Shown: positions 3,662 through 20,434, numbered from the stretch's first letter. The stretch is 64,000 bases of DNA from Myxococcota bacterium (GCA_028278265.1 JANQET010000406.1:3171-67170); one strand, 5' to 3'. A program made the numbers and translations. The notes: a model not told the origin generated them from the letters alone.

Positions 3662-5848
3662 CTAGGGTTTTTCCCATCGAACAATTGTGAGTTGGTTGTT
3701 TGCTACATCGGTGTTCACATATGCCCAAACCACATCTCCACTATTCATCCATGCGAATTCATCGTGAACTGGGAAGCGCTCGGGAATTGATTGAGGCCAT
3801 CTTACGAAGTTGCCGTTGCCGTCGATTATCGCGACATAATGCTTGGTTGATGTAGCAAATACAGTGTCCCATGCAACGAGGAATAGCCCTTTGCTATCAC
3901 TGCCTATTCGTTGTATGTGCGGTACGATTTCCGGCTCGGGAGTTTTTGTGAGAAATATGGGAGCCGCGTTAAAGCCATAATAATACTGGCATCCAACTGG
4001 TTGATTGTAATCAAAACAAGGGGGCATTCTCATGAATATGAATTCCGATGGAGCACTATTGTCTCTAAAGTACCAACAATGGGGCGGGTTTTCCATGTAT
4101 GGGTTTCTGTTGGAACGCTCGGACCACCTGCTTCCGCGCATTTGATCATCAATATGGCTGGTCATGCTCATTGCAAAACCATCCTCGAAGGGAACTAACC
4201 CGCCAGTGTCGTTGGGACTATCCTGACCATATTCAAATGGTATGGCCCAAATGGTGCTGTGGCCGCCACCTCTGGAAACGCGAAGGGATCCACCGGAATA
4301 TGCCTCGGCCCTACAAACCCTGGAGAACATTCCTATTGAGGGATTGTATGCTGCGCGTTCTTCTAGGCTGTGGCCGCATCCATTTCCACCCGGGGCATTT
4401 GATGAGCCAACTCCGCTTTGAGAATACAAATAGTTCAAATCGTCAGTATCAGCCACCAGCCATGAGTTTGCAGCATCGTGACCACCGTCGTTTATCTTTG
4501 AGAAAACCAGGAACACACCACCTTTATACGCAGTGCTTCCACCATCGGTCGAGCTGAGACCCACTGGGTTTTTTCCAAATACCATCCGCCCTTCAAAGCC
4601 AGAATTGGTCTGACCAATACATCTTCTAATTACCTTTCCATCGTCACTGATACTACTCGAATGGCTAGTTCCATCAGATGCGCATTCAATAACCGGAGGT
4701 GAGTTCAAAACTCCATTTGATTCGGGAGGGCTGTTAGGGCTTCTCAAAACCACCACATCTCCCCTCGATCCTTCGGATAGAAACCTACGAACGTACACCG
4801 CCACATGCTCAATGTCGTTAATGGCCAAGCCATTGCATTCATTTGCGTCTGGAACAATAACGTCATATTCGAGGGTGGCTAGGTCGTTACCGATTTTCGC
4901 AAGATGAACTTTTGTGTCATCATCGTTCCAACATAACATTAGTGAATCGTCTGAATTAGGTACAATATAATTAGGTCCTGGATCTCTCCACCAGTAGGGT
5001 TGACCTACGTTCTTGGGAAGTACTACCTGCGTTGTAGTTGTAGGAGGATCCTCCATTTTAGGATCCTCAACGCCTTCGAAAGGAGGGGCTCTTCTACCGG
5101 AGAATTCGTTAACCAATATTGCGACTTCCAAACTTGGTTTCGATTGTTGATTGCTACTGTTGTTAGCGGTTACTCGATATCTATGCGTTTCACCACTCGA
5201 TACACTGCTGTCGGTATATTTAAAGACGTCGGCGTCAACAACAACGATCGCGATATTGTTTCTATTTATTTCATAGGATTTTATGTTGTCGCTAGGAGAT
5301 GGCAGCCAATGTAGTTCGACTGTTTTCGGATCTGATTGTCGCACCCAAATTTTAATAGGTGGAGCGAGAGGGTCATCGTATGATTCCATCCCCTCTGGAT
5401 TTTCAAGGCTTGGACACCAACTATCAGGATGCTCGAATTTCTCGCAATCAGGTGAGCACATACCGTCACAAGCTACTGTGTCGCCATCGTCGCATAGCTC
5501 GTTTGATTCTCGTATATTATTACCGCAAATAGAAGCTGATGGGTCGCCGCAACCAGATGTGTCGAATAGACAATCATCTGTGCAAGCCAATATACCTTCT
5601 GAAAAACCCAGGTCAGCACAGGTATATCCGTTTAAACTATCACCATCGCACTCTTCGAACACGTTTGCATAGCCATCGCCACATACCTCTGGGGACTCGG
5701 TATCCGAATCCGAATCAGTATCAGCATCAATATCAATGTCACTGTCGCCACCGCCACTGCCGTTATTACCATCGGAGCAATTAAACGATGTGATCGATAA
5801 TGCCAGTCCAGCGATCAGGGTAATGAAGATCGTTTTGAAGTACGTCAT
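3662..5848 (-). CDS. large secreted lipoprotein with a short Asp-rich repeat, a Cys-rich repeat of myxococcal type (CGDGYANVFEECDGD...), an FN3-like domain and a large uncharacterised C-terminal domain
   Basis: Signal peptide MTYFKTIFITLIAGLALSITSFNCS (internal ATG 16 codons into the ORF). Matches the pattern C-G-[DN]-G-x(5-7)-E-E-C-D-D/G. FN3-like segment KIWVRQSDPKTVELHWLPSP...YRVTANN. GC is about 45%. Confidence 0.75.
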   Translation of the reverse strand: MTYFKTIFITLIAGLALSITSFNCSDGNNGSGGGDSDIDIDADTDSDSDTESPEVCGDGYANVFEECDGDSLNGYTCADLGFSEGILACTDDCLFDTSGCGDPSASICGNNIRESNELCDDGDTVACDGMCSPDCEKFEHPDSWCPSLENPEGMESYDDPLAPPIKIWVRQSDPKTVELHWLPSPSDNIKSYEINRNNIAIVVVDADVFKYTDSSVSSGETHRYRVTANNSSNQQSKPSLEVAILVNEFSGRRAPPFEGVEDPKMEDPPTTTTQVVLPKNVGQPYWWRDPGPNYIVPNSDDSLMLCWNDDDTKVHLAKIGNDLATLEYDVIVPDANECNGLAINDIEHVAVYVRRFLSEGSRGDVVVLRSPNSPPESNGVLNSPPVIECASDGTSHSSSISDDGKVIRRCIGQTNSGFEGRMVFGKNPVGLSSTDGGSTAYKGGVFLVFSKINDGGHDAANSWLVADTDDLNYLYSQSGVGSSNAPGGNGCGHSLEERAAYNPSIGMFSRVCRAEAYSGGSLRVSRGGGHSTIWAIPFEYGQDSPNDTGGLVPFEDGFAMSMTSHIDDQMRGSRWSERSNRNPYMENPPHCWYFRDNSAPSEFIFMRMPPCFDYNQPVGCQYYYGFNAAPIFLTKTPEPEIVPHIQRIGSDSKGLFLVAWDTVFATSTKHYVAIIDGNGNFVRWPQSIPERFPVHDEFAWMNSGDVVWAYVNTDVANNQLTIVRWEKP

Positions 5849-6479
5849 GCCTACACCTCCGATGAAAATTGTAGTTCTGCGAATAAGTGCCGTCAACTAT
5901 CGAATGTGAGTTTACGTTCTCTTACGTTCTATTTGATCGAATCAAATCAGCAATTATCATGGGATTGTAAAATCATAGCTATTGCAGCATAGTTCAGAAG
6001 GTGAATGGCTTGTTAAAAATACATATGGTCATCTTCAGTATTTCATATGAAAACAAACCGCTATTTGTGTTGTTCAATGGAGGACCGGGTTCGAGAACTG
6101 CTATTTTGCTCGCGTTGTGAAAGGGGAGAGAAGATCTACACAACCTAAAAATAAGCGACTTTTGGTCTAGACAATGGGGTCCACTTTAAATCTGTAACTT
6201 TTCGTCATATTCTCGGGCCCACAGCCCCCCGGGGTGCCAGCATTGGTTCTGACTGAGCGCTGGATTTACAGACTCGCCGCCGGCGGTTTCGCCGCTTCGC
6301 CACCTTTCTCGCCACCCCAGAATGCTGGAAGCCATGAATAAACCTAAGGATTACGTGATGTTCCAATTGGCGCGAAAGCTGGCCCACATATTGCCGGTAT
6401 TGCCAGGGCTATGCTTGTCGCCCCACAGTATGAAGCGTTTTCCTACCAGCGCCGGATACCCGAGCAGGAGCTGCTGCAC

Positions 6480-6600
6480 CAGATCTTGCTCGAACACCTG
6501 GAGACGTTTCTCGACCGCGCTCGCACGCTCAAAGACGAAGATGTCAAACAAATAGTAGAAACCACGGCCCATTCAACGCTTCAAATCGGGGCAAACTGCT
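6480..6600 (+). mobile_element. short IS91-family transposase remnant (...TLKDEDVKQIVETTAH...)
   Basis: Translated frame resembles PELTEDDVRQIVETTAHRVIRLL of the 1841..2413 fragment. There is no intact ORF. Confidence 0.3.
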
Positions 6601-6767
6601 TGACGGTTGGTCTCAAGAGGCCTTTTATTTCACCTATGTCTGAGTATTTCATGCTATAATGCCAATGGGGTAGTGACTAAAGAACACCAGAGTTTTCTTA
6701 ACTACGGCGGGTTTCGGCGCCTGCCAAGTGCAGAAACACTTTATGGTGAAAACGAAGGAGAGTATCG

Positions 6768-9473
6768 ATGAAAGCGTTACTAAAGTACTCCTTATATATT
6801 ATCTACACCGGCGCCATAACAGCCAGTGTGTTCTTCTTGTCCCGTGACTGGGATTTTCGAACACAAAATATCGATGAAGAGAAAGTCGACCCCATACGAC
6901 CCACTCTAGTGTCCCTCGAGCACGAAGAAGAAGACGAGTATGACCCCGAGAAGAACCGTGCTTGGACAGCGGAAGAGGCAAGAGAACACCAACAGGCATT
7001 GAGGCGCAAACTCGCGTTAACCCCTCCCAAAAGTAAAGATGCCGATCCGGTGGAGAGATACGCTGATGACACCTTAGTGGGAGTCTGGAAATCCAGGGGG
7101 CCCAGAAATATGCCGGGTTGCTGGCAGTTTGCCGAGATGCTGGACGGAACAGATGTCATCTACGGTGTTACTTGTGGTCACTATGGCGGCCTTCATTTCA
7201 TATATAAGGGTTCCCTCGCAGGAGATGATTTCACTCTCATCAATCGCCACTATCCCAACCGCTTTCGCCATTTACTTGCGTTCGAATTCGATGGGGAAAC
7301 TCGGCTTGTTGCCACCGTAGAAAACGGCCCGGTGGCCTATAGCGATGGTGACGGCACAGATTGGATTCCCTCCACAGGATTGCCCGACGAGATACACGGA
7401 ACTGCGGTAAACAGACAAGACAGCAATCGGGTATATGCAGTGGATGGTACAAAGGTGTATGTATCTGACGACGGAGGACAGTCATTTACTACACTTCAAA
7501 CATTTAGCTCCAGCAAGCAGAGTCGTGTTTACTCGCCTAGGTACGATAGTCAACCGGGGTCGTCCAATGTTTACATGGTGCGCGCTGGGGAATTTTTGAA
7601 GCTCAATAGTGCCGGTACCAGCTTTAACTCAGTTGGTTCATTTCCCTGGCCCGGTGACAACAAGGGATGCGCCATCGCCGGAGATACCCGAAAGTTCTAC
7701 GTGACAGTGGATTCAAAGTATTTCTCTTCCAGCAATCAAGGGGCCGGTTGGACACAGAAATATCCAGAGGGGGGATACTACAGTTCTGTCGGGGAGATGT
7801 CAGCGGGAGTATCAATGGAATATCTGGCCGTGCATCCGGAGAACCCCGAGATTGTTACCGGCGGCTACACCCACCCCGTCTATTCCAGCAACGGGTTGAC
7901 CAGCACTGCGCATGATTATGACAACTGGGGATTTTATCAAGTCATTGGCGACCCAGAAACCCGGCACCGCATCCGCTATCATCCGGACTTCCAAGCATCC
8001 CATTTCTTTTACGATGCAAACGATGATTTGCTGACGATACGATGCTCTGACGGCGGATTGTTCAAGTCTTACAGAGAGTGGATTGATTACGCCTTTGACG
8101 ATTATCCCTCCGATACCTATTACAACATCACGCTCTACGGCGTTCCTTCCCGAGAAACCTATCGCGCCGGACTGATGACGGGCCACAAAAACCCGGACCA
8201 CATGGTTGTAGGTACTCAGGACCAAGGTGTGCAAACCACCACCAATACCGGGGTGCAATCTCTGAATGTGCGGCAAGGTCCATATGGAGATGGTAGCACG
8301 GCAATAACCGCAGACGGAGTCACTGGATGGTCATTCGATTCCAGCAAAGTCTATTATCCATTCCCTCTGTACACAGGAGATGACTTTAAAGGCCAAGAAA
8401 ACCTCAATAGTGACAACTTTACTGAGTTTTCCGGCGAAGGGTATTGGCCCTACGGGGTAGTCGACGAAAAGGCACCGGGGCAGAGAGTATGGGTGCTGGC
8501 TCAAAATCTTCAACGGGCAGAGTGGAACGGTTCCAGTCTCACCGGCAAAGAAACCAACTTTGCAGCCGGTGGCTACGTATCTGCTCTGGCGCAATCTATT
8601 ACTTCGGATAAAATATGGGCGCTCGAAGCCGGAACCGTCTATCGATCGACCGATCGAGGTGACAATTGGAACAGTGGCACCCAGACGCCCCTCGGTACCA
8701 CCAATGGAATTTGGTCAGAGAATAACAAAGGTGGCGGCTGGTGTTCTCCGGTCAACGAAAATCTTATTCTATTTGCATCACCATCGAACAACAGTGTCGT
8801 CTCAGTTTTTTCTAAAGACGGTGGATCTTCATGGCAGGATGTTTCGGGAGTCTACCCCAACGCCAGTACGAACTGCATGAAGGGCACTCCAGACGGTAAG
8901 TTTGTTTTTGCGTCTACCAAGTATGGTCCCTATGTGTTTGCGGTGGAGTTGGAGCAGTGGTTTGATCTATCCGCGGGCATGGGTCCCGCCTTCTACGGTC
9001 AACATTGCGAATACATAGAGTCCATCAACGTGATGAGATTCTCCACTTGGGGCCTGGGGATTTGGGACTTTGCCATCGGCTCGGACACCGATATAGACTC
9101 GGACACAGATTCAGACACTGACACAGATTCGGATTCGGATTCAGACTCGGACTCAGATTCGGACTCAGATTCGGACTCAGATTCAGACTCGGACTCAGAC
9201 TCGGATTCAGATTCGGATTCAGATTCGGACTCAGATTCGGACTCAGATTCAGACTCGGACTCAGACTCGGATTCAGATTCGGACTCAGATTCAGACTCGG
9301 ACTCAGACTCGGATTCGGATTCAGACTCGGACTCAGATTCGGACTCAGATTTGGACGACGACGATCCGGAGGAGGAACTAATTCCCAGCGAAGAGAATTC
9401 ATGTGGATGCCGGACGGTGGGACAGCCCGCAGACGTTTCGGTTCTAGTTTCAACTTTTTTCGCACTCTTCTAA
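6768..9473 (+). CDS. secreted BNR/Asp-box repeat (sialidase/sortilin-like beta-propeller) protein with an ~80-unit Ser/Thr-Asp dipeptide repeat run (mostly SD/DS) and a C-terminal CGC-plus-hydrophobic tail resembling a MYXO-CTERM sorting signal
   Basis: N-terminal hydrophobic signal/anchor. BNR motifs [23 protein letters not shown] and [11 protein letters not shown]. Repeat run runs [20 protein letters not shown]... to ...[10 protein letters not shown]. Tail is ...[24 protein letters not shown] followed by a stop. Confidence 0.85.
9080..9355 (+). repeat. hexanucleotide tandem array (GAYTCRGAY)n, about 45 units, encoding the SD dipeptide run
   Basis: Visible periodic gactcggac/gattcagac units. 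Similar coding arrays occur at 11050-11340, 17560-17740, 38930-39070, 48030-48240 and 58990-59375. Confidence 0.8.
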
Positions 9474-9481
9474 GCGGGTAA

Positions 9482-10516
9482 TTGGGGACAGTGTTTTTTC
9501 AGTTCGAATGTCTTTCCAAACACTGCAACAACCAGGTTCGCTGCGACGACGGGGGAAATTGCTGCAACGAAGTGAATACAAGCCATTGTGATCTGTTCGT
9601 GTGCAATACAGATGTGTATCAACGTGTCGAGGATTGCGGCACAGCGGTTGAGCAGAATCAATTTTGCATTGCAGACTATCACTGCGAAGCCGGAGATTGT
9701 GTCCCAGACCTCGACAACGGCAGTTTCTGTGATGAGCCCAGCGATTGCGCATCCGACAATTGCAACAACGACACCTGTTGTCCCGCGGGCGGCACCTGTT
9801 GCACGGGACCAGAAGTCTGTGCTCAGGAACAGCCTATTTGCGGAGCGGAGTTTCAATGTGTGGATTGTAATGTGGAAGACCTGTGCGAGAATCAATACCG
9901 ATTGACTCCAATCTGCGATACTTCTTCGGGTAGATGTGTCGAATGCCTTACCAATGAGCATTGTTTATTGGAAATGGATACCGACAGCGAGACAGATATT
10001 GATACAGATACGGAGCTTCCTTTACCCTTCAAATCACCGTTGGGGGCTTGCACACCTGATCATGTATGCACTTGTTGGGTGGATCACGATACATGGCAGT
10101 GTACTACTTCTGCTGATTGCGATAGTGGATATCTCTGTGCGCAAGATTTTATCGGAGGATTTCACGCAACTTGTTTGAGGAGCTGCTCAACGGCGCAAAC
10201 ACCTTTTAACGGTGTCGCATGCGAAGAAAGAGATATAGCCGAGCCTGGCTCGCGACTCGTCTGGGTACCGGTAACCACATGCTACGCGTTCAATCGATTT
10301 GGTATCGATTCCTCGGCGGGTGAAGAGATTTGCAGCGTGGACGGTCCGGATGGTTTGGAAGACGGTTTTGGACACATGTTCGATGGACAAAATTGCTGCA
10401 CCTACTCCTGCAATAGCGAGCTAGACACAGACGATGACAATTGGTCCCGAGTGCAAGATCTGTGGAAGCGGTTCCAAGCTCTACGTGCCCTAGCCCCTGA
10501 TTACCTAACCTTATAA
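9482..10516 (+). CDS. cysteine-rich protein (about 40 Cys in 344 aa) with an internal acidic DT stretch; no recognisable signal peptide
   Basis: Only a TTG start, 8 nt after the upstream TAA, with a second in-frame TAA directly before it. Cys density is far above chance, so it is a real coding sequence. GC is about 48%. Confidence 0.5.
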   Translation: MGTVFFQFECLSKHCNNQVRCDDGGNCCNEVNTSHCDLFVCNTDVYQRVEDCGTAVEQNQFCIADYHCEAGDCVPDLDNGSFCDEPSDCASDNCNNDTCCPAGGTCCTGPEVCAQEQPICGAEFQCVDCNVEDLCENQYRLTPICDTSSGRCVECLTNEHCLLEMDTDSETDIDTDTELPLPFKSPLGACTPDHVCTCWVDHDTWQCTTSADCDSGYLCAQDFIGGFHATCLRSCSTAQTPFNGVACEERDIAEPGSRLVWVPVTTCYAFNRFGIDSSAGEEICSVDGPDGLEDGFGHMFDGQNCCTYSCNSELDTDDDNWSRVQDLWKRFQALRALAPDYLTL

Positions 10517-10804
10517 ATTGTACTTCTGCTGATAAGCTTTCTTGATAGCGGCGATCATTCGTTCGTGGCCGAACGTATCGTCTTCGTAGGCGTCGATCAG
10601 TATTCCCGTATTGAGATCGATCACACCGGCCCACAGGGACACGGCTCCCGAACTGGATGCCGGCAGGTAGTCGGCGTAGTCATTGCGAGCGTAGTACCCC
10701 ACTTCAAAGTAGGGATTGAAGTAACCGTAACATTCGGTCGCCGGGCCGAGTTGACCACTGTCGTGGTACATCCCCAAAAAAGCGCTCTCATAATCGTTCA
10801 TCAC
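10511..10804 (-). CDS. hypothetical 97-aa protein (Tyr/Asp-rich, not repetitive)
   Basis: Clean ORF convergent with the Cys-rich gene. No shadow-ORF explanation and no homology recognised. Confidence 0.35.
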   Translation of the reverse strand: MMNDYESAFLGMYHDSGQLGPATECYGYFNPYFEVGYYARNDYADYLPASSSGAVSLWAGVIDLNTGILIDAYEDDTFGHERMIAAIKKAYQQKYNL

Positions 10805-10858
10805 GTCTAGCAGGTCTGATGAATTAACTAATTCATCCAGCCAGACAGCACAGTTCGC

Positions 10859-11497
10859 TCACGCCTCGTTGCCCACAATGTAGAGCACTGATTGAAAGTC
10901 ATCGCAGAATACATCTTCTAAATTAAAGATGGTCTCGTCTAGCTCACTGCCGTCAATTTGGCCGTCGTGGTTGCGATCATATATGCCGTCGAACTGCCAG
11001 TTGGGCGCGGACTGGCCAATTTCGAGGGTACCGTCCTCCCCCCAAATTGCCGTTGGCTCGCAATCCGTGTCCCCATCGCTGTCGCTGTCTGTATCAGCGT
11101 CTGAATCGCTATCGGCATCACTGTCCGTATCTGAGTCCGTATCTGAGTCCGAATCAGCGTCTGCGTCGGTATCCCCGTCTGCGTCCGCATCCGCGTCACC
11201 GTCGGCATCTGAATCTGAATCGCTATCGGCGTCGGTGTCGGCATCCCCATCTGCGTCCCCGTCCGCATCGCTATCGGCATCTGTATCCGCATCCCCATCT
11301 GCGTCTGTATCAGCGTCGCCGTCACCATCGCCGTCAGCATCTCCGTCCGTTGATGAGTCATCATCGTCCGCTGGGTCGTCCGGTGAACCTTCCCCTTCTC
11401 CGCTACAGGCATTGATCACCGCTAACCAGGGGACCGCCAGCGCTATCAACAGCACCGCGATTGTGTTTAGCCATCTTCGTACATTCAGCACATTCAC
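10859..11497 (-). CDS. secreted lipoprotein with an Asp-Ala/Asp-Gly/Asp-Ser repeat linker and a C-terminal EF-hand/dockerin-like Ca-binding loop
   Basis: Signal with lipobox ...LAVINAC. Repeat [21 protein letters not shown].... Loop [14 protein letters not shown] fits DxNxDGxIDxxE. Confidence 0.75.
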
Positions 11498-11702
11498 CTC
11501 CGGACCGTTTTCAACCTCAAATAAACGAGTCTTTGTTTGGAAGACACATTATAACCGCATACTTAGTCAATGAAGTGTATTTTTTTGATTTTTAGGTGGA
11601 AAATTCTCAAATCAGTTCGATGAAGTTTCAATCAGCCTGTTCGATTTCGTTCTGGTGGATCGAACGCCTACGATGAGATTCTTTCGGAGGATCCGTTAGA
11701 AG

Positions 11703-11945
11703 CTAGGGTTGATTGAGGACGCAGCGGAGTACCCGACCGAGCTCGCCCAACCGATAGGGCTTGGCCAAGACCCCGCAAAAGCCCTGGGAGCGATATTCTG
11801 ACATGACCGGATCGTTGCTATAGCCACTGGAAACGATCGCCTTGATCTGCGGGTCGATCTCTTGAAGTTTTAAGACTGCTTGCTGTCCGCCCATTCCGCC
11901 GGGCACGGTTGAATATAGATAGAATAAAGGGCCTCTTGAGACCAA
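11703..11945 (-). pseudogene. C-terminal remnant of a receiver (REC) domain of a response regulator or hybrid kinase; the 5' part is missing
   Basis: ...PGGMGGQQAVLKLQEIDPQIKAIVSSGYSNDPVMSEYRSQGFCGVLAKPYRLGEL matches the last half of a CheY-like receiver. The ORF begins abruptly at the border of the AT-rich island. Confidence 0.5.
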
Positions 11946-12080
11946 CTGTCAAGCAGTTTGGGTCTTGATTGGATAGAATTTTCCATCTTCTATATTAAAG
12001 CCCCCCGTATTGATGGAAAATGTTTGAAAACTTTTTATGTTACCACCGTTTTTAATGTGCGTCTATATTTTTTTGACTTT

Positions 12081-12115
12081 TATTGACAACACAAGGGTTA
12101 GTTGATATCTTTTAT
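12081..12115 (+). promoter_or_regulatory. candidate sigma70-type promoter (TTGACA, 17-nt spacer, TATCTT) upstream of the AT-rich-island genes
   Basis: Hexamers read directly from the sequence and followed by AGGGAG. Not tested. Confidence 0.25.
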
Positions 12116-12211
12116 AAGAGGGAGTGAACGCGGTTTTAATGATTAATAAATTGACAATTTTAGAAAAGCGCGATGAAGTAGCCTTACACTTTAACAAGAA
12201 TTCTGCCGCCT

Positions 12212-12493
12212 ATGCTCGAATTTCTAAATACAGCTCAAGAATACTTGAAAGAGCTTGGTGCATTCCAAGGATCGCTGGTACTATTCTTTTTTGTTGCACA
12301 TTATGCGATATGGAGAATGTATAGAGGAAGGCTTAGAGATCGCCAAAAAGAGATCAACAGAATGGCAGAACACTGCAAAGACGTGAGAAAAGACAATTTA
12401 AGCTTAAGAAAACAGCTTTTTGAATATAACAAGTTGATGCTGAACGAGACTGTTAAACAAAAACGAACAAACAAGAAACAGAGGAGAAAATGA
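12212..12493 (+). CDS. small membrane/coiled-coil protein (93 aa), hypothetical
   Basis: One TM segment (GSLVLFFFVAHYAIW) then a charged coiled coil. The stop overlaps the next start (ATGA). An alternative small ORF at 12139..12324 with a better RBS cannot be excluded. Confidence 0.35.
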   Translation: MLEFLNTAQEYLKELGAFQGSLVLFFFVAHYAIWRMYRGRLRDRQKEINRMAEHCKDVRKDNLSLRKQLFEYNKLMLNETVKQKRTNKKQRRK

Positions 12494-13023
12494 CATATTT
12501 TTTATTGATTCCTGTTTCGGTGTTTCTTTTTTACCAGTTCTCTAGACTTCGGTCTTTAGCGAAGCACGACAAAATACTGTTCCCGATTTGTCAGATCCGT
12601 AGAGACATCATGTCTTTTTTTATGAAGAACGGCGTTGAAATTTCTGAGGTAAATTATCGCGAAGCGTTAGATTTATTAAAGGCGGTGGATATAACGATCC
12701 ACTATTACAATCCATTAAAGACGAATTTCTTCAACCTTCGCCGGTTTCAAGAACACGTTACTAAAACTCGCGAAGGTAAAAAAATAATAAACAAGCTGTC
12801 AAAGAATGAAGAGATTCGTGATCTTCAAGGGCGGTTTGGCAATGCGATTATCAAGGGATTTTTGGCTTATACGCCGTTCGTTCGCTCCGAATTTTGTTTA
12901 AAAACAATTTTGTTTTTAATCACCCGTATTGCGAATAAAAACATAGAAGAAATCGATCGTTCGGTTGAACAGGCTCGCCAACTCCGCAAGGAGTACTTAA
13001 TTTCCAACAAGGTTGCTTGTTGA
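12490..13023 (+). CDS. hypothetical protein with an N-terminal TM helix (177 aa), AT-rich island cargo
   Basis: Strong RBS GAGGAG upstream of the ATG. 37% GC. No recognisable domain. Confidence 0.55.
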   Translation: MTYFLLIPVSVFLFYQFSRLRSLAKHDKILFPICQIRRDIMSFFMKNGVEISEVNYREALDLLKAVDITIHYYNPLKTNFFNLRRFQEHVTKTREGKKIINKLSKNEEIRDLQGRFGNAIIKGFLAYTPFVRSEFCLKTILFLITRIANKNIEEIDRSVEQARQLRKEYLISNKVAC

Positions 13024-13220
13024 GTACTCATTGATCCAGCAGACCTTGCTTCAATTTTAACTGCCCTTCAATAAAATATGGCTAACATGTTGATATTATT
13101 GGTTTTTTCTTGATATCTGAATTGGAATATCGGCTGGATCGCCTTACAGATAAAGCACTATCAGTGTTTCTTCCATCGTTTGAGTTTAGTTTTTAGCAAC
13201 AATCCAACTATCCAACTTGG

Positions 13221-13991
13221 TTATTTTTTTCTACCTCGCTTCTTCCTTTTCTTCTTTTTCTGTTCAAGACTAACGCTCGGGAGTTGAACTTTGACTTTTT
13301 GAATTGAAAAGCCCTTCCTCGGCACGATTAGCTTCAAATCCGCCACCGCGGAGATCAACGGTAGTTCAAACGCCGTCATGCTCTTCTTTCTGATTCCGGG
13401 TTGAAGTTGTGTGAACATGTCTTTTTTACCGCTCATCGCGAGCGCCGTGGTGGCCGCAGAGGACGGGCTGTATTCGATGAACCGAGCATCTATGATTTTA
13501 AAATCGTCCGTGATCACCGTGTCTGTTGCTCCCTGAAGATTCTCAATTTCAAAATGGATCACGTAAAACACACCGTTTTCACCCGCTCGTTCTCCATAAA
13601 ATCGATTTCCGATGTAACGTGTAACGGTCACGTCGAGAATTCGATACGCGAAACCGCCAAGTTTGAAACGCTCGCCGATAGAGTAGATCTTTTCCGCTCT
13701 TTTCTTGGCGACTTTCTTCTCCTTTTTCTCTTTCTTCGGTTTTGGTTTGCTCGGCACGATCGGCGGTCTGGAGAGTGATGAACCTTCTGAGTTTATGCCT
13801 GTTTCTCGTTGTTTCGTACCAGATCCACCTGCCCCGGCACTCGTGATGATCAGACTCAGCACTAGCCACCCAAACGCGAGGCCTTTAACCACCTTTGAAT
13901 AACCTTTTCGCAGAGTGAACCAAGCGAACACCAGGGGAATGAAGACAATACCGACGCCGAGACCGAGGCTGACCTTTCGTTTCTCCGTCAT
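13221..13991 (-). CDS. membrane-anchored protein with a Lys-rich linker and a DUF4352-like Ig-fold domain; Lys-rich C-terminal tail
   Basis: ATG MTEKRK preceded by AGGAGG. TM segment LGVGIVFIPLVFAWF. Linker PKPKKEKKEKK. Domain pattern ...FKLGGFAYRILDVTV...VFYVIHFEIENL...FKIIDARF.... Confidence 0.55.
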   Translation of the reverse strand: MTEKRKVSLGLGVGIVFIPLVFAWFTLRKGYSKVVKGLAFGWLVLSLIITSAGAGGSGTKQRETGINSEGSSLSRPPIVPSKPKPKKEKKEKKVAKKRAEKIYSIGERFKLGGFAYRILDVTVTRYIGNRFYGERAGENGVFYVIHFEIENLQGATDTVITDDFKIIDARFIEYSPSSAATTALAMSGKKDMFTQLQPGIRKKSMTAFELPLISAVADLKLIVPRKGFSIQKVKVQLPSVSLEQKKKKRKKRGRKK

Positions 13992-14224
13992 GACTTTCCT
14001 CCTGCCCAACAAAAAAGGCGAGTGAGCCGCCGAGAGCTAAACCCACCCGCCTTTCCGTGAACAGAGGTAGTCACTCCCCTGCTGTAACGGCGCGGTTGTG
14101 CTCTCGGCTAGTTTTTAAAGGGCCAGGTGTTTTCGGCTTTAGAACGGCTGGGTGACTAGTCCGGCCTGGCGCGGAAACGATTGACCTTTTACGGTTATCG
14201 GTGTCTCGCTGTTTGTTGTCAAGG

Positions 14225-14330
14225 TCTTTTGTTTAATCCATTGTTATTTGACACTGTTTAATAGAAATTATTGTTTAATTTTAGCATATTATACGATATA
14301 ACATTGTTTATATTGACAGTATACAACAGA
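14225..14330. promoter_or_regulatory. four direct copies of an ATTGTTTAAT-like motif in a divergent intergenic region (candidate operator or iterons)
   Basis: ttgtttaatcc / tgtttaatag / ttgtttaatttt / ttgtttatattg lie between the divergently oriented genes 13221..13991 and 14360..14839. Confidence 0.3.
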
Positions 14331-14359
14331 AATGTTAGATATCCGCATGAGGAACCGCA

Positions 14360-14839
14360 ATGGACAATAGCGAAAAATATGACTACGAGCAGTCCGGGAA
14401 ACAACTGGTTGAACGACTTCGGGAAATCAAAAAAGAAATCAAAAGGTTAAAGCGCGAACAAAAATGGATCAACAATCTGCTCGTTAATAAAGATTCGGAG
14501 ATGCAAAAAGCGGGTCCTAGGTCGGTAAATGATGGTGTCACTAGGAAAACTTCTAGCAAAATTGCAGAGATCGCTAAGCAGGTCCTTCTTAAGCATCCGA
14601 ATGATTGGTTCGGTTCAGCGCATCTGGCCGATAAAGCGGTTGAGATGGGACTATGGGATGATCACCCAGCAACCTACCAGTCAGTAATGTCACAGACACT
14701 CAAGCGATTGATCGGACGAACTGATTGGTTATTCACCAAATCGGGTTCGGGTCGTAGCATGCTTTACAAGTTAGATTTCGATTCCGAAGCTGTAAAAGAG
14801 AAACACCGAGAAATTATGCGAAAGGAGGAAAATGAGTAG
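14360..14839 (+). CDS. hypothetical protein with an N-terminal coiled coil and a possible winged-helix (HARE-HTH-like) region
   Basis: Clean 159-aa ORF in AT-rich DNA. The segment KIAEIAKQVLLKHPNDWFGSAHLADKAVEMGLW has HTH-like character. Weak. Confidence 0.5.
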   Translation: MDNSEKYDYEQSGKQLVERLREIKKEIKRLKREQKWINNLLVNKDSEMQKAGPRSVNDGVTRKTSSKIAEIAKQVLLKHPNDWFGSAHLADKAVEMGLWDDHPATYQSVMSQTLKRLIGRTDWLFTKSGSGRSMLYKLDFDSEAVKEKHREIMRKEENE

Positions 14840-15189
14840 GTCGAAAGCAAAAGCACAAATGCCCTGAGTGTTGCATCACCCAAGGCACTTGAAAATCGGC
14901 GGGTACATTTTGGGCACCCATACAGATGCTCAAAATGTACCGCAGATGTCGCCGTAAATCAACATAATTCCCTCGAAAAAGCACCTGTACGAGAGAAGAA
15001 AGGGTAGGACTATGCTGAAGCGGTTCAAGAGGGCACGGGTGCGTCTGAGGCTTCGTGTCCGAAAAAACGGCGTCATCGTAGAAATCGAATGGATAACGGT
15101 AGCTTACGGCGATTCCCTCCCCAGGTACCCGTGAGCTTTCCCCCGGTGGAGAGGGCCACTGGGGTTTCTCTTCCTACATACAACTTTTA

Positions 15190-16075
15190 CAATATATCGG
15201 AGATATGCGAATGCCAAAGCGATTACCATTTGAGAAAAAAGTATCAGTGATCCACGCCCTCGTGGAGGGATGTTCAGTCAGATCCACAGAACGCCTCATG
15301 GGCGTGAACTTCGAGACGGTCCTTCGTCTTCTGGTAAGGGTTGGTGAAGCCTGTGAACGGTTTCTCTATCGAACCATGTTTGACCTCAACATCGATGACC
15401 TCCAAGTGGATGAGGTCTGGACGTTTTGTGGAAAAAAACAAGGCCACCTCACGAAGGAAGAAAAAAAGTTTAGATCAGACCTCGGCTCTCAAATATGTTT
15501 TTACAGCCATCGATAGGAGAACAAAGCTCGTGCCGCTGTACAGGATTGGCAAACGAAACGCGGAGATCGCGACGGAGTTTATGAAAGAGTTGAGGATGCG
15601 CGTCAAGACCCCGGTTCCCCAGTTGACCACGGACGGCTGGCACATCTTCCGAGACGCCGTGGAAAAGGCATTCGGGTGCGATGTGCACTATCAGGTTCAG
15701 ATCAAGGACTACTATGGTCCGGCAGCGGGCCACCAACACCGTTACTCGCCTCCAAAAGTGAAGATCGTTCATAAAGAAACAGTCAGTGGATCCCCCGTCA
15801 ACGCCTCCACGGCCCACGTGGAACAACAGAATTTAACCTTGAGAATGCGTCAACGGCGATTCACTCGACTCACCAACGGTTACTCGAAGAAGTTGCGAAA
15901 CCTGAAAGCGGCCGTAGCTCTACATTACGGGGACTATAACTTCTGTCGTGTACATGAGAGCCTCGGGGTAACACCCGCGATGGAGGCAGGGATCGCGGAT
16001 CGTTTGTGGACGTTGAATGAGTTTTGCGAAGAACTCGGCCTTTAATTCATAAGTTGTAAAATTCTATAAGACCGA
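15190..16075 (+). mobile_element. IS1-family insertion sequence (InsA-like HTH ORF plus InsB-like DDE ORF in different frames joined at an A8 run); imperfect terminal inverted repeats containing TTGTAAAA
   Basis: ORF1 15205..15516 and ORF2 15341..16045. ORF2 ends ...TAHVEQQNLTLRMRQRRFTRLTNGYSKKLRNL, like the IS1 InsB C-terminus, and has the DDE-region motifs DEVW...TDGWHIF. A8 tract at about 15434-15441. Confidence 0.6.
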
Positions 16076-16385
16076 CACCGCAGTTTGTTCGGCTTCACTG
16101 GATCATTTTCAGGCTGATTCGCGCTTAACCCAGGGTCTTGGAGTACTTGATGCCGACATCGGTGAGTCAGAATCCGGTCAAGTAGCGAGCGTTGTCCTGG
16201 AAGAGTCATTTGACGCCTGATCCTCTGCCGGTCAGCTTGTGTAAACGACGGCATTTGTATTGATATTTCGTTAACTTACACGATGCAGACGAGACCGCTG
16301 AAAAGATCGACCGCTGCTCATCGAGAGCGCACCCCAGCCCGAGGCCTCGTTTGGTTGGGCCGATTTGGGGCATTTTTTTGGGGGC

Positions 16386-16852
16386 CTAATAATCCATTTC
16401 TGTCTGGGGCGGCGCCCGCGCCGGGGCAAGCGTCGGGATCTGTGCAGATTGGCCGGTCCCTTCCAGATAGTGACGAACCGAGGAGGGATCGGTGACCGCG
16501 GCTACGAACTTCATCTTGCCGCCGCAATGTGGGCATTTCATGTCGATCTGGAAAATTCGGGCGAGCAGGGCACTCCATGAAAGTCTGTACGTGCGGGACG
16601 CGGTTCCCTCGTTGTCATCAGCGGCGGCGTCGTCATTCGAAGTCCGACCGGCGGGGACAATCTTATCGCGGTCCCGGGCATGTGGCGCTAAAACCCCATG
16701 ATATCTCACGATATTTTGTCGAGGCGGGGGCACTAAGGCCGAGCACGGATTACTCATCCGCGAGCCGGTCATAGTCGCCGTCATCGAGGATTGAGCGACG
16801 CTGAAGCAGGCGGATCACTCGATGGGCGGTCGTCTCCACGATTTGCCGCTAT
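16386..16852 (-). mobile_element. IS91-family transposase C-terminal fragment (zinc-finger CPHCGGKM... and RYHGVLAP tail), same strand as the 1841..2413 fragment
   Basis: C-terminal motifs of IS91/IS801 TnpA. 16756-16852 is near-identical to 1961-2058. No N-terminal part. Confidence 0.6.
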
Positions 16853-17429: not shown

Positions 17430-19229
17430 ATGTTTTTTCGTCTGCCTGCGAGCTTACCTTTTTCCATTCTACTTCTTTGCATCATCTCCTGCGGCCGGAT
17501 TGAATTCGAAAATCTCGATTTCTCGGATGGTGGTGGCACCGGGGATGCTGATACAAACAGCGACGCCGATGTAGACACCGACACTGATACGGATACGGAT
17601 GGGGACACAGATAGTGATGCCGACACAGATAGCGACAGCGATACGGACACAGATGTGGACACGGACACAGATTCAGACACAGATACGGACACAGATTCAG
17701 ACACAGACACAGATAGCGACGGAGACACAGACATCGATACCTGTCCCGATGGTTTTATCTGGAGCGGTACTATCTGCACCGAGGTAAACAACTGTGGGGA
17801 GATCCAAGAGCTAAACAGCAATCTTCCCAGTGGCGACTATTCCATCATTCCCCCCACTGCGCCGCCGCTTCCCGAGGCGGGTTGCACCTATCACACCTAC
17901 AACCACCACGCCTACTATTACTGCGATACCCCCACAGAGTGGGCAACCGCTCGGGACAACTGCCGCCAGGTGGGAATGGAACTGGTCCGGATAAACGATG
18001 GCGATGAGAATATTTTTGTCCACAGCACCATCACGGCGGACTGCTGGTTAGGGGGCAACGACATTGAGAGCGATACCAACTGGTATTGGGTAAACGGCCA
18101 CAATAGCGCCACTCCATTTTGGCAGGGGTGGGCAGATGGCAATGCGGTGGATGGGTTGTACGAGAATTGGGCGCCAACAGAACCCAACGATGGGGCAGAA
18201 GATGAAGATTGTGCCGAGATGATCAGCGGAAGCTCCCAATGGAATGATCGCCCCTGCACCGGATACGATAGACCCTACATGTGCGAGTCCGCGTTTACCC
18301 CAAGAGCGCCCAGTGGCGATTGCCACCATTGGATATACAACCAACACCACTACTATTTCTGTCGCATTGGTCTCTCCTGGGCAGAGGCGCGGGACGCCTG
18401 CCGAGGGGTGGGAATGAATCTGCTGCGCATCGACGACTCTGACGAAAACAGCTTTGTCACCAGTCATCTGGAAGTGAGCACCTGGCACAGCGCCAATGAT
18501 CTGGCAGTGGAGGGGGCATGGCGATTTGCGCAAAACGGCAACCGGGAAGGAGATCAGTTCTGGAGCGGTGGCAGCATCGGCAACGGCGGTTCAGCCGTCG
18601 ATGGGCACTACAGCAACTGGAATACCAATGAGCCCAATGACCCCGGGAACAATGAGAACTGCGGCATGATAGCGGCCACAGGCACCTGGAACGATGGGCT
18701 CTGCACCGATCCGCTTGACTATGTGTGCGAGCAAACCTACTTTGCTATCCCCGCTGCGATTCCGGCTGGCAGCTGCGCCCACATTCCATTTGAAGAGAAA
18801 AACTACTTCGCCTGCGTGGATAAAATGGCCTGGATCGATTCTCGGGACAACTGCCGGGCCGCGCAAATGGAGCTGGTGCGCATCGACAACCCGACAGAAA
18901 ACGCCTTGATAAAAGGCCTCATCGAGTGGCACACCTGGATGGCGGCCAACGATCTCTCTGTGGAAGGGGAATGGCGATATGCTGATAACGGCACCAACGA
19001 CGGCGATCAATTCTGGAGCGGTGGCTCCGTGGGTAGTGGCGGCGTGCCCGTGGGCGGACTCTTCAGCGACTGGTATGTGGATGAACCCAACAATTTGGGC
19101 ACCGCGGAGCACTGCGCCACCATGCAATTCGCCACCCATCAATGGAACGACGACTACTGCACCAATTATGAGAACAACCGGGTTTGCGAAGCAGCCAATC
19201 CCACCCAAACGGTCACCTGTACGTTCTAG
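17430..19229 (+). CDS. secreted lipoprotein with an Asp-Thr/Asp-Ser repeat linker followed by three C-type lectin-like domains (CTLDs)
   Basis: Signal with lipobox ...LLLCIISCG. Repeat [25 protein letters not shown].... Each CTLD shows the motifs W-x-x-A-R-D-x-C, WIG/ND-like, EPN and WND-x-x-C (for example NWAPTEPNDG...WNDRPC). Confidence 0.85.
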   Translation: MFFRLPASLPFSILLLCIISCGRIEFENLDFSDGGGTGDADTNSDADVDTDTDTDTDGDTDSDADTDSDSDTDTDVDTDTDSDTDTDTDSDTDTDSDGDTDIDTCPDGFIWSGTICTEVNNCGEIQELNSNLPSGDYSIIPPTAPPLPEAGCTYHTYNHHAYYYCDTPTEWATARDNCRQVGMELVRINDGDENIFVHSTITADCWLGGNDIESDTNWYWVNGHNSATPFWQGWADGNAVDGLYENWAPTEPNDGAEDEDCAEMISGSSQWNDRPCTGYDRPYMCESAFTPRAPSGDCHHWIYNQHHYYFCRIGLSWAEARDACRGVGMNLLRIDDSDENSFVTSHLEVSTWHSANDLAVEGAWRFAQNGNREGDQFWSGGSIGNGGSAVDGHYSNWNTNEPNDPGNNENCGMIAATGTWNDGLCTDPLDYVCEQTYFAIPAAIPAGSCAHIPFEEKNYFACVDKMAWIDSRDNCRAAQMELVRIDNPTENALIKGLIEWHTWMAANDLSVEGEWRYADNGTNDGDQFWSGGSVGSGGVPVGGLFSDWYVDEPNNLGTAEHCATMQFATHQWNDDYCTNYENNRVCEAANPTQTVTCTF

Positions 19230-19324: not shown

Positions 19325-19470
19325 GCCTTTGCATAATCCGCGGCAATCCGCCCAAATCCGCCCAAATCCGTCCCAATCCGTCCCAATCCGTCAATGATTA
19401 TGTCGCAATAATCGATATTTCTCATCGGTAAACGATAAACCTCCGGTCAGTCGGCGCGCTCGATCCCCCC
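19325..19470. repeat. intergenic repeat element, copy B (about 142 bp; 5 tandem 10-mers)
   Basis: See the copy at 1729..1850. Begins at the stop codon of the CTLD gene. Confidence 0.6.
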
Positions 19471-19654
19471 TTGATCAGCTAACCATTAGGATTATCTCAC
19501 TTTTTCAGATAATCTCTTTTTTAGAGAAATATATTGCGTTTTTCTTCAAAAGGAATGATATATGGAAATATATTTGATGCTGTGCTAGTTAATTAACCGT
19601 TATAGGCACGTAAGAAAAAGGACAGGAATAAAGAAAATAGTCGAGAAGATAGCG

Positions 19655-20434
19655 ATGGACAACATTATCTCAAATGAGGCGCTGGAAAGGCTCGATAATC
19701 GAGCTGAACGCGTTCGACAATTGATGACGTCCAGCACGCAAGCTCAAATCACCCAACTCTGGAAACAACTCGATTTCTCACTGATTTATCACGATTGTGC
19801 GCTGGAAGGGCAAGTGGTCAGCTCGGATGAGCTCAATGCGGCGTTCAACGAACGGACGGTGACCGATGCGTCCTCGCTGCAGCTTTACAACGCGCTCCGA
19901 TCGCAGCGACGGGCCGTTGATCTGGTTCGGGAGATGGCCGCTCAAGAACAACTCGTTTTTTCGATCGATTTATTCAAGCAGTTTCACCACCTCTACGTTC
20001 CCTCCGCATCGAACCCGGAAAAAATCAAACACGGCCACTATCGCAAAGAGATTCCCCTACACCGCTCCTATTTTCACGAGATATCCGAGCCCGCGAGAAT
20101 CTCCGGCAACATGCGCCAGCTGATCGCTTGGCTCAACGACCCCGAAGAAGCGTTGGCCCTGCACCCCCTCAAGTGGGTGGCCAAGTTTCACTACCGCTTC
20201 ATGCGCATTTTTCCCTTTGCTGAAACGTCGGGCAAAATCGCCCGGGCGACGATGAACATGGTGCTCATTCGCACCGGCTACCTGCCGGCGATCATCCACG
20301 CCACCGAGCGGCAGCGCTACTACGAGTGCATTCGTCAACCCCTGCCCGAGCTCACCCGGTTGCTGGCGGAATCGGCCAACTCGTCCCTCGACGCGGCAGA
20401 GAAATTCCTGCGCAGACGGGCCAAGGCGTCATAG
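19655..20434 (+). CDS. Fic/Doc-fold protein with a degenerate active-site motif (FPFAETSGKIAR instead of HPFx[DE]GNGRxxR)
   Basis: Overall Fic-domain context ...VAKFHYRFMRIFPFAETSGKIARATMNMVL.... The catalytic His is replaced by Phe and GNG by TSG. Confidence 0.6.
   Translation: MDNIISNEALERLDNRAERVRQLMTSSTQAQITQLWKQLDFSLIYHDCALEGQVVSSDELNAAFNERTVTDASSLQLYNALRSQRRAVDLVREMAAQEQLVFSIDLFKQFHHLYVPSASNPEKIKHGHYRKEIPLHRSYFHEISEPARISGNMRQLIAWLNDPEEALALHPLKWVAKFHYRFMRIFPFAETSGKIARATMNMVLIRTGYLPAIIHATERQRYYECIRQPLPELTRLLAESANSSLDAAEKFLRRRAKAS

Follow-up and report, generated by a model that had tools for sequence, protein, structure and literature searches.

The 64,000-nucleotide stretch of DNA analyzed here in its entirety (the window; Myxococcota bacterium, GCA_028278265.1 JANQET010000406.1:3171-67170, one strand) carries at positions 11961-16079 what is very likely one 4,119-bp transposon of the IS1 family of insertion sequences (ISs), with four passenger genes (P1-P4) in the manner of a "transporter IS" (tIS), horizontally transferred into a genome of ~58% guanine-plus-cytosine (GC) content. 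A preliminary description of the same DNA had seen an AT-rich cargo island at 11946-14900 with IS1 as its neighbor; IS1-like genes do follow at 15205-16045, but they form the transposase end of the same element, whose true left boundary is 11961 and not 11946. Observed directly are the borders of the element, the gene order that it shares with a second copy, and the homologies of its genes.

Terminal repeats, transposase, and a second copy

A search of 11801-15260 with the reverse complement of the first 60 nt past the insB stop codon placed the top match at 11973-11999, on the left edge of the AT-rich segment; it scored 32, and none of 300 shuffles exceeded 26. The left (distal) terminal inverted repeat, which opens with GGTCTTGATTGGATAGAATTTTCC... 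and spans 11961-12003 on the plus strand, where the reverse-complemented IS1 right end matches best, aligns with the right terminal inverted repeat at 16037-16079 on the minus strand (GGTGTCGGTCTTATAGAATTTTAC... in the minus-strand reading) without gaps and in register from the tips: 31 of 43 positions are identical, both repeats start with GGT (GGTCTTGATTGGATAGAATTTTCCATCTTCTATATTAAAGCCC vs. GGTGTCGGTCTTATAGAATTTTACAACTTATGAATTAAAGGCC at the aligned tips), and an invariant ATAGAATTTT core lies 12 nt from either tip. Flush with the two tips stand identical copies of the octamer GCAGTTTG (11953-11960 and 16080-16087), a target-site duplication. By chance, an octamer would recur in direct orientation at matching distances from both repeat cores with a probability of ~1e-4 to 1e-3; target duplications of IS1 are typically 8-9 bp. 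Because of the inverted repeats and the flush GCAGTTTG octamers, the whole of 11961-16079 appears to have moved as a unit in a single DDE transposition event. A Logan contig from an independent assembly (run SRR20820740) is exactly identical to the window over 9322-15512, left junction included, which shows that more than one assembly contains this junction.

The receiver-domain gene on the left, described earlier as truncated at 11945, is indeed present as a fragment (11703-11945), but its receiver homology already ends near 11900, and a 46-nt segment (11915-11960) with an 89% identical inverted twin at 6592-6637 separates that homology from the element. The target of the transposon was not the receiver gene itself. 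In the in silico empty site, where ...CAAGCAGTTTG is joined directly to TTCGGCTTCACTGG..., removal of the element restores no open reading frame (ORF) across the joined flanks.

The transposase is encoded on the plus strand in two frames (15205-16045), InsA at 15205-15516 and InsB at 15470-16045, which meet at an A7 run (15461-15467). Deletion of one A gives a 279-residue fused protein, InsAB', whose best NCBIfam match is the IS1 family model NF033558 (E 1.5e-15, residues 10-154, spanning the junction); in Pfam, DDE_Tnp_IS1 narrowly clears its cutoff of 24.1 with 25.7 bits, and DDE_Tnp_IS240 falls short of its cutoff of 27 with 26.6. By these profiles InsAB' appears nearest to the IS1 family, yet a distant member of it. 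No record of an identical InsA protein was found elsewhere, and the five IS1-like relatives in species-representative genomes are at most 54% identical. The two-frame layout is kept, with an A8 run, in the second copy of the element (contig L002), and because it is conserved at 26% protein divergence it argues for programmed recoding rather than decay.

This second copy contains the nearest P3 homolog (P0005, 44% identity), which is located on L002 (4.6 kb, 33% GC; sister run SRR20820739) and on L003 (SRR20820740). L002 is collinear with window positions ~13300-16048 and comprises the P3 homolog, its leader, a P4 homolog, insA, and insB, with identities at the amino acid level of 44% for P3, 38-40% for P4, 77% for InsA, and 74% for InsB, and at the nucleotide level of 72% for the leader. 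It has its own 19-nt inverted repeats (95% identical) at 1055-1073, adjoining the insB stop codon, and at 4580-4598, ~650 nt past the P3 homolog, which enclose all shared genes; the contig ends 2 nt beyond the latter, as is common for assemblies at repeat borders. Because L002 shows this order together with repeats of its own, "repeat - cargo - P3 - leader - P4 - insA - insB - repeat" reads as a conserved transposon design. What varies is the distal segment, which holds P1-P2 in the window vs. ~650 nt devoid of convincing genes in L002, with no significant similarity between window 11961-13220 and L002 3931-4600.

Base composition drops abruptly near 11.95 kb, from 0.47-0.52 to 0.35 GC in 300-nt windows, as had been noted from the outset, but the uniform ~37% GC claimed across 11946-14900 does not hold: the interval has 42.0% overall, with 36.5% in 11961-13220 (P1 and P2 with their flanks; 36.5% in P1 and 38.0% in P2), 48.0% in P3, 55.1% in the noncoding P3 leader upstream of it, 26.9% in the P4 promoter region, and 43.5% in P4. 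Likewise, the chromosome put at roughly 60% GC has 58% over positions 20-64 kb of the window, but 46-55% over 2.4-20 kb and merely 50-55% in the immediate flanks of the element. GC at third codon positions (GC3) is 0.38-0.43 in P1-P2 and 0.54-0.63 in P3 and InsB, and by this measure P1-P2 look like later arrivals than P3 and InsB in the window copy. Because GC3 is 0.19-0.34 in the L002 copy vs. 0.38-0.63 in the window copy as a whole, hosts of differing base composition have evidently housed this transposon family over time. Together, the differing composition, the terminal inverted repeats with their 8-bp duplication, and the diverged collinear copy in a 33%-GC contig bear out the horizontal acquisition proposed earlier; the vehicle, for which a phage or plasmid origin had been considered, is a transposon instead and not a prophage or plasmid remnant.

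Cargo genes and their putative control

All four ORFs initially described are present: P1 (12212-12493) and P2 (12490-13023) on the plus strand, P3 (13221-14012) on the minus strand, and P4 (14360-14839) on the plus strand. Not all of them are beyond explanation, with P3 a DUF4352 protein, P1 a conserved partner of P2, and P2 represented by 218 relatives among cluster representatives (exhaustive search, E ≤ 1e-3), nearly all of them ~180 aa in length.

For P3 the likelier start is the ATG at 13991, in agreement with both the gene call and the homolog alignment, which yields a 256-residue protein (13221-13991, minus strand) of Mpr-like architecture: two N-terminal hydrophobic segments (approximately residues 5-29 and 34-56, with KRK before the first), a K/P-rich linker, a DUF4352 domain, and a Lys-rich tail. 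The membrane anchor, Lys-rich linkers, and DUF4352 likeness reported previously are all found, the DUF4352 match being below threshold in P3 (E 1.5e-4, 22.5 bits, cutoff 25.9) and clear in its homolog P0005 (E 3.6e-15, 56.7 bits). P3 further matches the PHROG families phrog_806 (4e-19) and phrog_37565 (1e-15) as well as proteins of temperate Paenibacillus and Bacillus phages, and alignment of its family with gp44 of phage Fionnbharth by hhalign returns 95.6% probability (E 1.2e-8, 108 columns); no relatives of the P3 family were found in IMG/VR. The DUF4352 genes of phages Wanderer and Fionnbharth adjoin integrase and repressor genes, and the P3 homolog P0009 adjoins XRE repressor and primase-like genes.

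Mpr (MSMEG_1236) of Mycobacterium smegmatis features DUF4352 as its C-terminal domain (PMC9262609, PMC12596739), preceded by a transmembrane segment at residues 33-50 and a low-complexity region (PMC9262609). The resistance to phage D29 that it provides is non-abortive, and the protein, usually silent, is toxic upon overexpression (PMC9262609, PMC12596739), which damages the membrane (PMC9262609); Fionnbharth gp44 and Stink gp33 are phage-encoded DUF4352 proteins, of which gp44 was tested experimentally (PMC12596739). The resemblance of P3 to Mpr is limited to domain and architecture. By analogy, P3 would most likely exclude or degrade incoming phage DNA at the membrane, and it is in this conditional sense that we infer a defense or toxin function for P3 or its companion cargo.

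The P3 promoter and its ~200-nt GC-rich leader occupy 13992-14225 on the minus strand (equivalent to 2985-3231 in L002) and consist, in order, of a -35 TTGACA (14222-14217), ~130 nt of GC-rich conserved sequence, a terminator hairpin with its U-run, a ribosome-binding site (RBS), and the ATG. The hairpin, a match of the terminator scan, has 13-15 bp (arms 14054-14042 and 14026-14014) followed by the U-run. Over 208 nt the leader is 72% identical to its L002 counterpart, whereas the flanking proteins are 38-44% identical; the two leaders share the identical blocks TAGTCACCCAG and GGGGAGTGACTACC-N-CTGTTCACGGAA, differ by indels of 1-3 nt, and have no ORF of at least 40 aa inside. Both sequences keep every one of the 31 pairs in three proposed helices, 3 changes being compensatory and 4 compatible with wobble pairing, and folding against shuffles gives z = -2.4, better than shuffles, for the L002 leader and z = -0.65, not better than shuffles, for that of the window. 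Mainly because its conservation exceeds that of the proteins on both sides, the leader is a candidate functional element, as judged from two sequences only, and would most simply act as a terminator-based gate on a potentially harmful membrane protein; alternatively, it could encode a small RNA or be a region bound by protein. Rfam 15 returned nothing at gathering score in the window and chance-level matches at E ≤ 1 in L001-L003, and scans for the leader motif gave three chance matches with no other similarity to the element in the metagenome collection and none, with two patterns, in the viral collection.

P4 (159 aa) is a probable regulator with a coiled coil and a winged-helix-like part, conserved beside the IS core in both copies and at the same position in L002. 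A weak HARE-HTH match (E 3.6e-3) and an AlphaFold2 (AF2) single-sequence model of low confidence (predicted local distance difference test, pLDDT, 60), with a long N-terminal helix followed by helix-helix-helix-strand-strand, agree with its earlier reading as a coiled-coil and helix-turn-helix (HTH)-like protein; a word-indexed protein search found no relatives and a PDB profile search nothing credible. The four TGTTTAAT-like same-strand direct repeats noted in the divergent P3/P4 region are likewise there (14228-14312, plus strand; at 14228, 14253, 14270, and 14303) and constitute candidate operators: in the whole window there are 5 TGTTTAAT sites with at most one mismatch, 3 of which fall within 52 nt in this region. 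P4 is probably a DNA-binding regulator of the divergent promoters that binds the TGTTTAAT repeats. Between P4 and insA, the spacer contains strong terminator-like hairpins at 14856-14891 (minus strand) and 15141-15164 (plus strand); the second overlaps a possible internal inverted repeat and may keep transcription from reading through into the transposase gene.

The sigma-70-like TTGACA-17-TATCTT element exists (12083-12111, plus strand; 10/12 consensus positions and a TG extension, a consensus match only), but sits upstream of P1, outside the divergent intergenic region to which it had been assigned. P1 is a 93-residue single-pass membrane protein (hydrophobic segment at residues 15-33) with a coiled-coil tail, and its overlap with P2 through ATGA is confirmed. 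P2 (177 aa) has a hydrophobic N-terminal helix and the family motif KHD..LF.FCQ.RRD, and its AF2 model from the family alignment is all-helical at pLDDT 90.4. A word-indexed search had found no P2 relatives, a limit of its sensitivity given the outcome of the exhaustive one; P2 has no match in Pfam, NCBIfam, PHROG, PDB sequences, or PDB folds, nor in 50,697 phage genomes, and a relative is encoded by 1 of 2.9 million contigs of the viral collection (IMG/VR), a Mu-like contig that carries it as a P1-P2 pair near a Mu Gam-like gene. A P1-homologous gene of 72-89 aa lies directly upstream of the P2 homolog at loci L008, L009, L011, L023, and L025, and the P2 homologs of L007 and L022 have none. 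Taken together, these sequences depict P1-P2 as a real, conserved, and uncharacterized two-gene membrane cassette, the genomic contexts of which are heterogeneous and point to no function. Compared with the near-identical L012, L011 has an inserted AAA_15/AAA_21 ATPase gene and a 249-aa gene at 6620-8642, directly downstream of the P1-P2 cassette and ahead of the S10 ribosomal operon, in what looks like a variable, defense-island-like spot.

For transposase activity, regulation, and all cargo functions, we propose the following scheme. By inference from the IS1 family, joining of InsA and InsB at the A7 run would produce a DDE transposase that recognizes the two GGT...ATAGAATTTT tip repeats and moves the whole segment, and whose latest move would have duplicated the 8-bp target GCAGTTTG. 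P1-P2 would be expressed from their own sigma-70-like promoter, whereas P3 would be transcribed through the ~200-nt leader with its intrinsic terminator and probably be off unless read-through occurs; the divergently transcribed P4 probably binds the TGTTTAAT repeats and would regulate both P3 and itself. Mpr and the DUF4352 proteins of phage lysogeny modules serve as the models for a likely phage exclusion by P3 at the membrane, which would benefit the transposon-carrying host.

Alternative explanations and the surrounding region

An arrangement of two unrelated neighbors, in which a compact ~0.9-kb IS1 (15161-16079) landed later beside an older AT-rich foreign island, would draw on the possible, tentatively assigned internal inverted repeat just upstream of insA (15161-15200, plus strand; ATACAACTTTTACAA vs. 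ATAGAA-TTTTACAA of the right end), whose score is not above shuffles and which has an analogous match at 2061-2085 in L002; its weak resemblance makes a short IS possible, and the absence of P1-P2 from L002 together with their GC3, unlike that of P3 and InsB, marks the cargo as a mosaic. However, the internal site is a poorer match to the IS right end than is the 11961 end, the 8-bp duplication is found at the outer tips and not around the short IS, and P3, the leader, and P4 accompany the IS1 genes in a copy with a 26%-diverged transposase and its own inverted repeats, such that two independent neighbors are very unlikely; tentatively, a core IS of ~0.9 kb may itself have later gained the distal repeat. 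A decayed prophage or satellite, with P3 in superinfection exclusion, P4 as repressor, P1-P2 as lysis or membrane genes, and an incidental IS1, fares no better: the PHROG and temperate phage matches of P3, the lysogeny-type neighborhoods of the DUF4352 genes in Wanderer and Fionnbharth and of P0009, and the P1-P2 pair in a Mu-like viral contig are all in its favor, but 11961-16079 contains no integrase, capsid, tail, or replication gene, its sharp borders are transposon repeats with a target duplication, and P2 is next to absent from the phage genomes and viral contigs searched, which together render this origin highly improbable.

It was also suggested initially that the cargo is a membrane-acting toxin-type or abortive-infection module, in which P1-P2 and/or P3 would be the effectors. 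Hydrophobic anchors in 3 of the 4 proteins, the toxicity and membrane damage caused by Mpr overexpression (PMC9262609), and a terminator-containing leader fit for a harmful product would all agree with such a role; PADLOC, on the other hand, gave no matches, the closest characterized analog, Mpr, is described as non-abortive (PMC12596739), and the heterogeneous contexts of P1-P2 indicate no function, making this reading of the cargo unlikely. We are somewhat more doubtful of a broader proposal, in which the leader represents a new class of cis-regulatory RNA (riboswitch or factor-dependent antiterminator) that gates a DUF4352 phage-exclusion protein, and P1-P2 a widespread, undescribed two-protein membrane module, an accessory or defense cassette that travels on transposons and Mu-like phages.

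It is important to note that several observations weigh against an IS1-family transposon with Mpr-like cargo. Its terminal repeats are merely 72% identical; the NF033558 match of InsAB' (57.7 bits) lies below the curated cutoff of 100 and is accompanied by weak further NCBIfam matches to IS1595 (E 3.6e-8) and IS6 (E 1.5e-5); and joining the frames takes a +1 shift or an mRNA that lacks one A, such that the copy could be inactive. A single other cargo-bearing copy was found and no empty site was seen, and the five IS1-like relatives in species-representative genomes contain neither P3 nor P4. As for the cargo, P3 and gp44 are ~24% identical (BLASTP, E 4e-5) in a match confined to DUF4352, the DUF4352 domain of P3 could face the cytoplasm given its two hydrophobic segments vs. 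one in Mpr, and PADLOC models have no match to P1-P4 at E ≤ 1. In the single-transposon reading that we prefer, the mechanism is ordinary, that of an IS1-family transposon with passenger genes and thus of a known kind, and it is the cargo that is unusual.

The transposon sits inside a larger rearranged region that is probably foreign. Similarity between the 46-nt arm at the insertion site and its twin begins precisely at the duplicated octamer, the right arm abutting the transposon and the first 8 nt being the target; the repeat arm contains a small hairpin and then a T-rich run. Beside the twin, a short ORF (6411-6659) has an N terminus that presumably recalls IS91-family transposases, with no match in Pfam. 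We considered 6592-11960 as a transposon bounded by the 46-nt inverted repeats and rejected it, as it has neither a transposase nor a flanking duplication. On a larger scale, nested direct repeats, namely 1945-2053 vs. 16740-16848 (109 nt, 98%) and 1727-1841 vs. 19331-19464 (88-100%, with tandem 10-nt AATCCGNCCC units inside), bracket a region of lower GC (2.4-16.7 kb, or 2.4-19 kb in its wider extent); this nested-repeat region may be a larger integrated or rearranged island. A Y2_Tnp-like ORF (1841-2413) overlaps the left direct repeat, and a weaker Y2_Tnp-like match at 16386-16784 (E 0.011) was not reported on re-search at E ≤ 0.01.

The same neighborhood encodes large, secreted-looking proteins with long Asp-Ser/Asp-Thr repeat linkers (3662-5896, 6768-9473, 9482-10516, 10859-11497, and 17430-19229), most of which have no Pfam match; the last has three C-type lectin domains (E 2.7e-43). 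Similar Asp-Ser/Asp-Thr repeat DNA recurs at ~48.1 kb and 59.0-59.4 kb. Where the repeat 19331-19464 has its right edge, GC drops sharply a second time (0.38 at 19400-19699), just ahead of a Fic/DOC-family gene (19655-20434), and farther along the window 55078-56831 and 61687-63440 (~1.76 kb each) are 69% identical in direct orientation and presumably represent paralogous genes.

Comparison with known systems

The region can now be viewed as a mobile element with exact borders, which helps both genome annotation and the reading of the region's history. It places an Mpr-type DUF4352 gene, together with its probable regulator and a conserved structured leader, on a small DDE transposon and not on a prophage, and carriage of this kind would be a cheap route for phage exclusion to spread between hosts of very different GC. 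Two by-products are worth follow-up in their own right, the uncharacterized P1-P2 family with its many P2 relatives and a candidate new regulatory RNA with no known family.

The IS1595 family, to which IS1 is related, includes ISs with passenger genes (PMC3129680, citing Siguier et al. 2009). As far as the account of tIS given there extends (Siguier, Gagnevin & Chandler 2009, as cited in PMC3129680), the window element is alike in its DDE transposase, nearest to IS1, in the non-transposition passenger genes inside its repeats, and, with respect to the IS1 and IS1595 families, in its two frames at an A-run, GGT-starting repeats, and 8-bp duplication. It is a distant member by its NF033558 score and differs in that its InsA has an HTH match and no zinc-finger match. 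E. coli IS1 uses a -1 frameshift, in contrast to the +1 shift or one-A loss required here, and none of the other IS1-like elements retrieved was found to have the cargo set of DUF4352 protein, winged-helix protein, structured leader, and P1-P2.

The P3 leader resembles the terminator leaders of riboswitches and attenuators in its order of promoter, conserved sequence with candidate helices, hairpin with U-run, RBS, and start codon, and differs from them in having no Rfam match and a covariation that is anecdotal (3 pairs, two sequences). P3 itself differs from Mpr in its very Lys-rich linker and tail and in its two hydrophobic segments, for which reason its topology may differ, and its N-terminal anchor belongs to a separate phage family, phrog_37565. 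With Mpr, gp44, and gp33 it shares what appears to be a basic-flanked N-terminal membrane anchor, a flexible linker of low complexity, and a C-terminal DUF4352 domain, and, like them, it is carried on mobile DNA and its expression appears to be tightly gated.

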